A DNA stretch of 28,146 nucleotides, taken from contig JANOWM010000056.1 in assembly GCA_031417875.1 (NCBI GenBank), positions 1 to 28,146 on the forward strand, written 5' to 3'. Position numbers and translations under genes: made by a program. The notes beneath the pieces are model-generated. The model ran no database searches and was not told where the DNA came from. It worked only from the letters and a program-made list of their open reading frames with translations. Below, one piece after another: positions 593 through 19,545 of the stretch (positions are counted from its first letter, which is position 1; every line of letters begins with the position of its first letter). The stretch is from Candidatus Altimarinota bacterium (GTDB lineage: Bacteria; Patescibacteriota; Gracilibacteria; BD1-5; UBA2023).

Positions 593-598
593 TATAAT
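593..598 (+). promoter_or_regulatory. -10 box (TATAAT) for the putative toxin mRNA (~604-800)
   Basis: Perfect TATAAT just before a run of hairpins whose G-U pairs favour the + strand. No clear -35. Confidence 0.5.
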
Positions 599-657
599 GT
601 TCGTGCTCCTTCTCTTCCATTAGGAGCAAGGAGGTTATATTTTCTAACCTTTTCACT

Positions 658-750
658 ATGAGATTCTCTTGTAGAGTCTTCCTCTGGAAGCAATGCTGGG
701 TGATCGAATTCTCGATTACCAGAAAGCGTTTCGTGAGACGAGGCAAATAA
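658..750 (+). CDS. 30-aa basic/aromatic peptide, putative type I toxin
   Basis: ATG658..TAA750 = MRFSCRVFLWKQCWVIEFSITRKRFVRRGK. Upstream AAGGAGG is held in a stem (ggaggtta/taaccttt) and the ORF is followed by a terminator. Confidence 0.58.
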   Translation: MRFSCRVFLWKQCWVIEFSITRKRFVRRGK

Positions 751-769
751 CCTTGTCGGTCACGATAAA

Positions 770-800
770 GAAAAATCCCCATTCAAAGTGGGGATTTTTC
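770..800. terminator. Bidirectional intrinsic terminator
   Basis: Perfect 12-bp stem gaaaaatcccca / tggggatttttc with a 7-nt loop; T runs on both strands. Confidence 0.85.
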
Positions 801-844
801 AAGGAGGCTATAGTACCTTTTCACAGTATTCCTCTTTCGAGGAC
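770..844 (-). ncRNA. Putative ~75-nt antisense (antitoxin) RNA
   Basis: Lies between a minus-strand promoter (851-877) and the shared terminator. Starts with a cctc-GAAA-gagg tetraloop hairpin and crosses the second DR copy, so it is complementary to the SD/start region of the + transcript. 5' end is estimated. Confidence 0.55.
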
Positions 845-850
845 AATCTC

Positions 851-877
851 ATTATATCACTTTTTTCATAAAATCAA
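851..877 (-). promoter_or_regulatory. Sigma70-type promoter for the antisense RNA
   Basis: Minus strand: TTGATT-15 nt-TATAAT with extended -10 (TG-A-TATAAT). Confidence 0.6.
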
Positions 878-883
878 ACTTTT

Positions 884-1222
884 TTAGCTACTTCTTGGCA
901 TACCGTAAAAATCAAATCCTTTGAGGTCTACCATCGATTTTGTGATGTAATTTTTCTTTTTTCCTTTTTTAAAAAATCCGCGTTCATCCAGAATTCATTG
1001 TTCGATAAGGGAATCTATATTTTTTGTGGGAAGTTTCTTTTTCGGAAATGCTTCTTTATTCTGCATGTAGCGGGTTCGTTTTTTGTATGAGAGATTGAAT
1101 CGTGATTGTTTATTTTCGTTTCCTGTATACGAAAGAGCTGCTTTTTTCTTCCCTTTCGAGAGCTTACGTGCAGCAGCTTGTTTTTTTACGATGCTAGATT
1201 TGAGTCCGTGCGAATTTGCCAT
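884..1222 (-). CDS. Lys-rich hypothetical protein (112 aa)
   Basis: Track ORF 995-1222 reads through TGA (IEQG ILDERGFFKKGKKKNYITKSMVDLKGFDFYGMPRSS) to TAA at 884. Confidence 0.62.
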
Positions 1223-1417: not shown

Positions 1418-1496
1418 TGGAGCGGGGAAACGGGTTCGAACCGTCACACCCAAGGGTTGAAGCCTTAGTACACTCACTCTTTTATGTTACCCCCGC
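1418..1496 (-). tRNA. tRNA-Gly(UCA), decodes UGA as Gly
   Basis: Cloverleaf: acceptor GCGGGGG/UCCCCGC, discriminator U73, encoded CCA, anticodon loop CU-UCA-AC (1458-1460), short variable loop, T-loop UUCGAAC. G1-C72, C2-G71, G3-C70 and U73 are Gly identity elements. Confidence 0.93.
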
Positions 1497-19005: not shown

Positions 19006-19545
19006 CTGTCATTCCTGTCCCGCTTGGCGGGATAATACTCCTGCAGGAATCTTACTTACATTCTTCTGTACTTTTTCACCCTCAAGGGGTGCCTCGTCGA
19101 CAAAAAAGTACCAAAAAGTCTTCAGGGTCTTCCATGCTTCATTTTCTCGTATCTGTTGCCACTTGATTTCCTAAAATTGCAAGACTACCAAACGTTGCAA
19201 TTTTTACGGAAATCTTCATGGACAGATACGGAAAACTCGCATAAGGAAGAAAAAGAAATAAAATAAAAAACAAAGCCAGAGCCAAAAAATCGATGATGAA
19301 CAGTGAAGGGGGGTTCGAAAGTTTGGAGTGTTTGCTTCTTTTTTTGGTGAACTTTCTGATTCTGTCGTCGATGTTTTCGAAAAAATTGCAACGTTTCTGA
19401 ATTTTGCAATTTTAGAAAACAAGACGATTACAGAATCCAAAGTGAACCAATGGAAAGAAGGACCTTTTGGTACTTTTCAGTCATGAAAAGTACAGAGAGA
19501 AAGTTTTGAAAATATGGAGATCCTGAAACAAGTTCAGGGTGACAG
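19006..19545. repeat. ~540-bp fold-back element: two diverged ~200-250-bp units in inverted orientation
   Basis: 19173-19205 vs reverse complement of 19381-19413 match 28/33; matching tctgtactttt..aaaagtaccaaaa blocks at 19065-19120 and 19461-19496; TGTCA-REP termini at both ends. Confidence 0.8.

Follow-up and report, generated by a model that had tools for sequence, protein, structure and literature searches.

A compact module at positions 545-890 of a 28,146-nt contig (JANOWM010000056.1 of assembly GCA_031417875.1, from a Candidatus Altimarinota bacterium of the class Gracilibacteria; hereafter the window, meaning this whole stretch at its full length) probably belongs to a family of type I toxin-antitoxin systems, present in multiple copies and patchy in distribution, that resemble the par locus of Enterococcus faecalis pAD1. 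In this candidate module of ~340 bp, one copy of a repeated family, a plus-strand gene for a short basic peptide faces a minus-strand gene for a small RNA across a common terminator, and repeats in the two genes would allow the small RNA to pair with the mRNA around its site of translation initiation. A type I system with par layout had been proposed from the letters of the window (the original prediction), and the retention of both the open reading frame (ORF) and the repeat complementarity in homologous loci lends support to it at the sequence level. Here we describe the anatomy of the module, its conservation and distribution, and the ways in which it resembles and departs from known type I systems.

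Direct reading of the window, together with a repeat finder and a promoter/terminator scan, recovered all the elements originally described (TATAAT promoter, upstream hairpin, AAGGAGG in a stem, 30-residue ORF, convergent minus-strand promoter, common 12-bp terminator and two direct repeats read in opposite directions), with positions at most 1-2 nt off. The left module edge and plus promoter span 545-598, with a perfect -10 box (TATAAT, 593-598), a weak -35 box and an A/T-rich tract upstream; homology with paralogues in the same genome begins near 545. The predicted mRNA, roughly 200 nt long, opens with a 5' hairpin at 605-627 (GCTCCT, 605-610, paired with AGGAGC, 622-627), which is seen in the minimum-free-energy fold, followed by a second hairpin at 628-656 in which the purine box AAGGAGG (628-634) is paired with TAACCTTTT (645-653). 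Overlapping these hairpins on the plus strand are the first copies of the two direct repeats, DRa (CAAGGAGGTTATA, 627-639) and DRb (ACCTTTTCAC, 647-656), the predicted targets of the antisense RNA. The peptide ORF (658-750, plus strand) consists of an ATG-initiated run of 30 codons and a TAA stop, and encodes MRFSCRVFLWKQCWVIEFSITRKRFVRRGK, with a net charge of +8.

The bidirectional intrinsic terminator (770-800, both strands) is formed by a perfect 12-bp inverted repeat (770-781/789-800) with a 7-nt loop, flanked by runs of A and of T on opposite sides; because it is common to the two predicted RNAs, their 3' ends overlap and are complementary. Beyond the terminator, the segment 800-835 repeats, in decayed form, the part of the mRNA leader that extends from the box into the first codons; its minus-strand reading constitutes the predicted single-stranded targeting part of the antisense RNA. 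It contains, all read on the minus strand, DRa' (CAAGGAGGCTATA, 800-812, with one mismatch to copy 1), DRb' (ACCTTTTCAC, 815-824) and a third repeat block (825-835), the duplex partner of 675-685. The antisense RNA would begin with a hairpin at 830-843 (minus strand, UCCUC GAAA GAGGA) and extend from ~845 to ~765, roughly 80 nt. Its putative promoter, which coincides with the right module edge (851-887, minus strand), has an extended -10 box, TGATATAAT (the reverse complement of 851-859), and a -35 box read as TTGATT or TTTGAT (the reverse complement of 872-878). Folding of the plus-strand RNA 604-806 gives z = -6.7 against 200 shuffles, with AAGGAGG paired in the minimum-free-energy structure; the minus-strand RNA (z = -3.9) folds with the GAAA-loop hairpin at its 5' end and the terminator at its 3' end, separated by a single-stranded stretch. 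A leader or attenuator of a neighbouring gene was considered for this segment and ruled out, as both flanking genes lie on the opposite strand and the RNA stops at a strong terminator.

The anatomy, reading frame and conservation of the module were assessed in 47 non-identical loci examined in detail, with sets of 46, 19 and 17 loci for individual counts. The order of elements is constant in the 47 loci: -35 and -10 boxes, a hairpin ~6 nt after the -10 box, the purine box, a short loop with the anti-box (often followed by TAAC), a pyrimidine-rich stretch, an invariant ATG ~53 nt from the presumed transcript start, an ORF of 19-42 codons, the terminator, a second, shortened leader copy (box to first codons), a small hairpin, and a convergent promoter whose -10 box is of the extended type. 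The stop codon falls anywhere between 18 nt inside the terminator stem and 20 nt before it. It is mainly this conservation that excludes a chance layout. The plus-strand -10 box occupies the identical place in 19/19 curated loci, and in relatives it is preceded, at a distance of 17-18 nt, by TTGATT or TTGACT; the minus promoter is kept in all aligned loci, and both -10 boxes sit at conserved positions in the 19 curated loci as well as in the 46- and 17-locus alignments.

The predicted helices are maintained by changes on both sides. Such changes affect four of the six pairs of the 5' hairpin (46 loci) and four of the five pairs of the antisense 5' hairpin, and compensatory changes occur in 7/12 pairs of the terminator (17 loci), whose stem is present in every locus. 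For the two helices of the antisense RNA taken together, both-side changes are found in 11 of 17 pairs, a level of covariation reached by none of 500 shuffles. In many loci the AUG itself lies inside a hairpin (TTTTCAT-TTT-ATGAAAA or TCTCAT...ATGAGA), the two sides of which change together. At gathering level, Rfam models detected only tRNAs in the window and no antitoxin RNA; a permissive search of 350-1300 (E up to 10) gave weak, terminator-driven matches only (e.g. AgrB at 28.7 bits, the gathering score being 40).

The original prediction held that the short RNA could pair with the translation-initiation region of the long one, and the predicted duplex in the window has an energy of -38.5 kcal/mol, a value reached by 0/500 shuffled antisense sequences. 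It consists of three blocks, 628-639/801-812, 647-656/815-824 (ending 2 nt before the AUG) and 675-685/825-835 (codons 6-10), so that pairing would bracket the start codon; the two RNAs are in addition fully complementary over the common terminator. The specificity of pairing was assessed by folding the 5' part of each antisense RNA, without the terminator, against every mRNA. Among the 19 curated loci the cognate mRNA ranked first in 15 and in the top two in all 19; in an independent set of 30 loci fetched afterwards it ranked first in 23 and in the top two in 27, giving a first-ranked cognate duplex in 38/49 loci overall. In the independent set the cognate duplex averaged -35.6 kcal/mol, compared with -22.1 +/- 5.9 for non-cognate pairs. 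The repeats, the variable DRb box included, vary between loci and agree within a locus: GTTTCACGC occurs twice in one genome and GTTTCATAC twice in another, and further loci contain CCGATTTATCGTAT twice or CTCCTTTACTTGAT twice. Homologous loci thus keep the direct-repeat complementarity through co-variation of the pairing segments.

Conservation of the ORF, likewise anticipated, is also found. The ATG is invariant in 46 loci, and frame 0 is open from the ATG to the terminator in 47/47, compared with an early stop in 23/47 for each of frames +1 and +2. In all 56 comparisons between pairs, the ratio of non-synonymous to synonymous polymorphism (pN/pS) falls within 0.19-0.76; in three peptide families variability peaks at the third codon position, and between the window and its paralogue on contig C59 (67% identical) the pattern IEFSI-x-RKR-x-VRR is kept via synonymous changes. 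Judged by these substitution patterns, the ORF is a gene under purifying selection. In peptide family 3 an in-frame TGA is read as Gly, which indicates that the modules are native to a host using genetic code 25.

At least seven peptide families can be distinguished, of which families 1 and 2 are represented best. Family 1 follows the pattern M[RK]..ELPYWK..IEFS...KR.V[KR]R.. (22 aligned members, with M1, W10, K11, R24 and V26 invariant), and family 2 the pattern MR.LL....G.E.V...RVTGRTRRKLLRQYR (13 members). The peptides are rich in Arg, Lys and aromatic residues; Lys and Arg make up 18-41% of residues, and the net charge is +7 to +12 for peptides of 30-42 residues and +3 to +4 for two short ones (19 and 22 residues). 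AlphaFold models a family 1 peptide as a single helix at moderate confidence (predicted local distance difference test score of 71), which is uninformative for a 30-mer. A protein search with a 42-residue variant gave no match, and an exhaustive profile search of 1.84 billion proteins gave only 11. Nine of these were inspected: eight contain the same peptide, mostly at the C-terminus, inside over-extended ORF calls that run through the leader, and the ninth is a 30-residue call. Over-extended public gene calls therefore hide the true small ORFs in protein sets. The public predictions P0001-P0009 call the loci as proteins of 69-199 residues that run through the leader (...QEEQGVLLLN.FHF) into the peptide.

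The genome that contains the window (a 1.0-Mb assembly of 129 contigs, from a freshwater-sediment metagenome, with Candidatus Gracilibacteria/Patescibacteria metagenome-assembled genomes as its nearest named relatives) has eight complete copies of the module, on contigs C56 (the window), C21, C59, C65, C44, C3, C24 and C85. Incomplete copies comprise one cut by a contig end (C9) and three with the 3' half only (C9:4427-4568, C33 and C63). A covariance model of the antisense half built from 17 loci (R1) matches 12 places in this genome and, within the same family, 35/89 genomes and 10/24 genera, with up to 12 matches per genome and several tandem arrays. Two sister families of the order gave only weak matches, and 147 genomes from 33 other families of the class gave no R1 match, a result that doubles as a control for the specificity of the model. 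The module family is specific to a single family of Gracilibacteria, and diverged relatives of it occur in a sister family. The neighbouring genes differ at every copy, and the orthologous elp3 locus lacks the module in 11 genomes of the same genus, showing that its position is polymorphic.

The tandem arrays (L065, corresponding to G075:C91:900-2900, and L066, L067 and L068) comprise 3-5 modules that encode different peptide families; solitary antisense halves and a recurring ~60-nt spacer, GCTGAAGTTCC...CCCGCCAAAAGGCGGGG, lie between them. The diverged modules of the sister family in the same order (L089:155-452 and L095:142-440) have the identical layout with an AGGAAG box; their peptide, MRIY.SFK.K.YIFAFSITK...KARKKRG, has an FSIT motif in common with family 1, and the cognate duplex ranks first in both loci.

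The two halves of the module differ in their independence. A covariance model of the 5' half built from 46 loci (R2) has 85 matches in the family, of which 83 are accompanied by an antisense half whose distance and orientation are as expected, and two lie at contig ends. Conversely, antisense halves without an intact 5' half are common: at least 11 stand alone, retain only the last ORF codons, or adjoin a different repeat in place of the 5' half, and in one otherwise complete copy the ATG is changed to ATA. Loss of the peptide half but not of the antisense half is the pattern predicted for a toxin-antitoxin pair; this asymmetry is supporting evidence for the toxin-antitoxin reading, not proof of it. 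In the copies at C9:4185-4583, C33:7622-8015 and C63:6685-7065, the last ORF codons, the terminator and the antisense half are kept, and the 5' half is swapped for a repeat with TTGCAA...TTGCAA and GTACTTT...AAAGTAC hairpins. Such TTGCAA/GTACTTT hairpin units were also noted in the original reading of the window, at 19006-19545.

The purine box was first taken for a Shine-Dalgarno (SD) site locked in a stem, with the caveat that it lies 23 nt from the ATG and that SD use is rare elsewhere in the window. The SD role was rejected. The SD motifs GGAG, GAGG and AGGA are not enriched at any position upstream of 1,366 long ORFs in the genome, where G is depleted. A 16S rRNA was not found in this assembly, and those of congeners were used instead: the 16S 3' end of two congeneric genomes and of one from a sister genus (L054, L055 and L057, each at 1500-1560) reads GGACTATCTCTTTATC, ending in CUAUCUCUUUAUC for the genus and in GCGGATGGACTATCTCTTTATC for all three, and in these three rRNAs the anti-SD core CCUCC is changed to UCUCU, in agreement with the missing SD signal. 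In two other genera of the family, the 16S rRNA ends in AUCUCCUU. Across the family the box itself varies (AGGAGG, AGGAGT, AGAGGT, AGGGTGG, GAGAGG, GGTGAG and GGGGT), and it changes jointly with the 5' arm of the first hairpin, the downstream anti-box and the antisense RNA. On this comparative evidence AAGGAGG is an RNA-pairing element, which explains its constant 23-nt spacing to the AUG. The host is further characterized by a tRNA with anticodon UCA (1418-1496, minus strand, labelled tRNA-SeC by ARAGORN), which is the recoding tRNA expected under genetic code 25 in a genome that uses TGA as a sense codon. Together with long ORFs that are open only when TGA is read as sense, it identifies a code-25 genome.

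From this anatomy we infer that both strands are transcribed, that the small RNA acts as a repressor and that the peptide is toxic, as well as the nature of the peptide's target. In the proposed mechanism, an mRNA of ~200 nt would open with a hairpin that caps its 5' end; a second hairpin would sequester the purine box and a third one, in many copies, the AUG. The mRNA would encode a peptide of 19-42 residues and stop at the bidirectional terminator. A strong convergent promoter would produce an RNA of ~80 nt, comprising a 5' hairpin, a single-stranded antisense of the leader duplicate and the same terminator. The small RNA would pair with the mRNA at the terminator, at the purine box ~25-30 nt upstream of the AUG, and at the segment just before or after the AUG. 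By bracketing the start codon, the pairing would exclude ribosomes or bring about decay, in an organism whose translation initiation does not depend on SD pairing, and the peptide would be made when the labile small RNA is lost. Because the peptides are highly cationic and lack a membrane-spanning stretch, they more likely act on nucleic acids or ribosomes, or as surface-active cationic peptides, than as an Fst-type membrane helix.

Several points weigh against the toxin-antitoxin reading. The sequencing runs listed for the window are of DNA only (the freshwater-sediment study), with no RNA run containing the locus, and the promoters are matches to consensus sequences only. The duplex energies leave out intramolecular structure, and the within-locus agreement of the repeats could stem partly from recent duplication or gene conversion instead of selection for pairing. 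The asymmetry between the halves was counted manually from two match tables and depends on the differing sensitivities of R1 and R2. As for the peptides, their longest uncharged run is 4-11 residues, whereas nearly all characterized small type I toxins are membrane peptides, and relatives were found neither in Pfam, NCBIfam and PDB (profile search) nor in the ESM Atlas.

The soluble appearance of the peptides, which are Arg/Lys-rich like arginine-rich RNA-binding motifs, would also suit a non-toxic small basic accessory protein (e.g. one binding nucleic acids or ribosomes) under antisense control, that is, a regulated gene in place of an addiction or defence module; purifying selection says that the peptide matters, not that it harms. 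We consider this unlikely, as the patchy occurrence (35/89 genomes), the range of 0-12 copies, the tandem arrays, the many peptide families per genome and the absence of the module from orthologous loci of congeners fit selfish or accessory modules better, and as three translational locks and a 5' half that never occurs without its antisense half are hard to square with a harmless product. The same dependence of the 5' half points to self-toxicity and speaks against an outward-acting antimicrobial peptide, made by an epibiotic or predatory cell of the candidate phyla radiation (CPR) against hosts or competitors, with the antisense RNA serving only for timing. CPR bacteria depend on host cells, and the peptides are cationic, Trp/Phe-rich and ~30 residues long, as antimicrobial peptides are; the modules nevertheless have no signal peptide, leader, adjacent exporter or immunity gene, and their neighbours differ at every copy, which leaves this role highly improbable. 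The slimmest chance falls to a non-autonomous mobile repeat resembling a miniature inverted-repeat transposable element (MITE), or a structured non-coding RNA, in which the ORF would be incidental and untranslated. Multiple copies, polymorphic position and the stable fold of the plus-strand RNA (z = -6.7) are what such an element would display, but the excess of third-position changes, pN/pS below 1, the invariant ATG and 47/47 frames open to the terminator argue for translation, and there is neither an Rfam match nor a terminal inverted repeat beyond promoter similarity. A MITE-like element with terminal inverted repeats was ruled out on the latter ground, the terminal inverted similarity being just a 12-nt match between the two promoter regions.

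The par-like loci are described in a review of the Fst/Ldr toxins (PMC7472228), which lists among their features convergent promoters, a bidirectional intrinsic terminator and the direct-repeat pair DRa/DRb, and gives as the toxin signature a hydrophobic transmembrane helix, a conserved Trp, a charged tail and a P/D/S/TXXXG motif. Convergent promoters (by consensus sequence), a common terminator and crossed direct repeats are all present in the Gracilibacteria module, and the 5' hairpin and box hairpin, both covarying, form a structural analogue of the par leader in which the box does not act as an SD site in this host. The par organisation originally proposed (RNA I/RNA II with DRa/DRb) therefore holds for the conserved layout, the SD function excepted. 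As in par (RNA I/Fst and RNA II of E. faecalis pAD1, and the par-like loci of Firmicutes), convergent promoters and one terminator would yield RNAs with complementary 3' ends, two oppositely transcribed direct repeats would let the small RNA pair with the mRNA where translation is initiated, and the mRNA opens at its very 5' end with a helix (the counterpart of the upstream helix of par), ahead of a second stem-loop with the purine box. The two also have in common a peptide of ~30 residues with a charged C-terminus (a basic tail in most of the Gracilibacteria peptides), usually a conserved Trp, and multiple chromosomal copies.

The Fst/Ldr toxin signature is otherwise absent. Unlike Fst, the Gracilibacteria peptides lack both a hydrophobic transmembrane helix and a PXXXG motif, and they match nothing in the Pfam and NCBIfam libraries, both of which include models of type I toxin families, in line with the original description of the peptide as not Fst-like. 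Further differences from par are the box, which is not an SD site and lies 23 nt from the AUG in a code-25 CPR host with an altered anti-SD and no SD usage, and the lack of sequence similarity to the Rfam Fst antitoxin family.

Other type I systems provide partial parallels. In tisB/istR-1 and zorO/orzO of Escherichia coli, as in the Gracilibacteria module, the antisense RNA makes its main contact at a site tens of nucleotides upstream of the AUG, within a structured, translationally inert leader, and the small RNA does not simply overlap the whole coding region; in these systems, however, the small RNA genes are divergent or encoded in trans, without a common terminator or par-type repeats, and the toxins are hydrophobic membrane peptides. 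SymE/SymR and RalR/RalA set a precedent for an RNA-controlled, soluble basic toxin directed at nucleic acids, although SymE and RalR have 60-113 residues and recognizable folds, compared with 19-42 residues and no known family for the Gracilibacteria peptides.

Type I systems have been reported only from Proteobacteria, Firmicutes and Tenericutes, with a cyanobacterial candidate proposed (PMC12390103, 2025), and the reasons for this narrow distribution have been discussed (PMC5367252). A search of literature full text found no paper that joins type I toxin-antitoxin systems with CPR or Patescibacteria; Gracilibacteria and toxin-antitoxin are co-mentioned in papers, none of which has both terms in its title or abstract. 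We rate as new the combination of a par-type architecture with a new peptide class, a new phylum-level lineage and a non-SD host. As a tentative extension, the family may consist of CPR-specific, self-propagating type I modules that encode a new class of toxin (soluble, Arg-rich peptides of ~30 residues acting on RNA, DNA or ribosomes instead of the membrane) in an SD-free host, with a par architecture either ancient or reinvented. About ten par-style copies in a 1-Mb genome would extend the type I class to the CPR, and would show that minimal genomes also carry many selfish RNA-controlled cassettes. The more than 45 co-varying mRNA/antisense pairs provide a natural set for the study of RNA-pairing specificity and of SD-free antisense control of translation, and the peptides would form a new, easily synthesized family of possible growth inhibitors. 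For annotation, the loci are a case in which public gene calls report longer, spurious ORFs.

Two further features concern the sequence around individual modules. Some family 1 modules (L015:1716-1800, minus strand; L016:1640-1760, minus strand; L043:190-330) contain a self-folding insert of ~77 nt, ATGAGGC...GCCCTCAT, that separates the conserved first ATG from the peptide ORF. The insert opens an upstream frame, MRLCLLVLHS.QK.RASPHFLSPFEL; the TGA of this frame and the ATG of the peptide ORF overlap as ATGA. In the window, the module is directly preceded by a separate, short dispersed repeat of 85 nt (441-525, with a palindrome at 462-507), copies of which, 79-84% identical, occur at C40 2226-2310 and C87 10830-10914.

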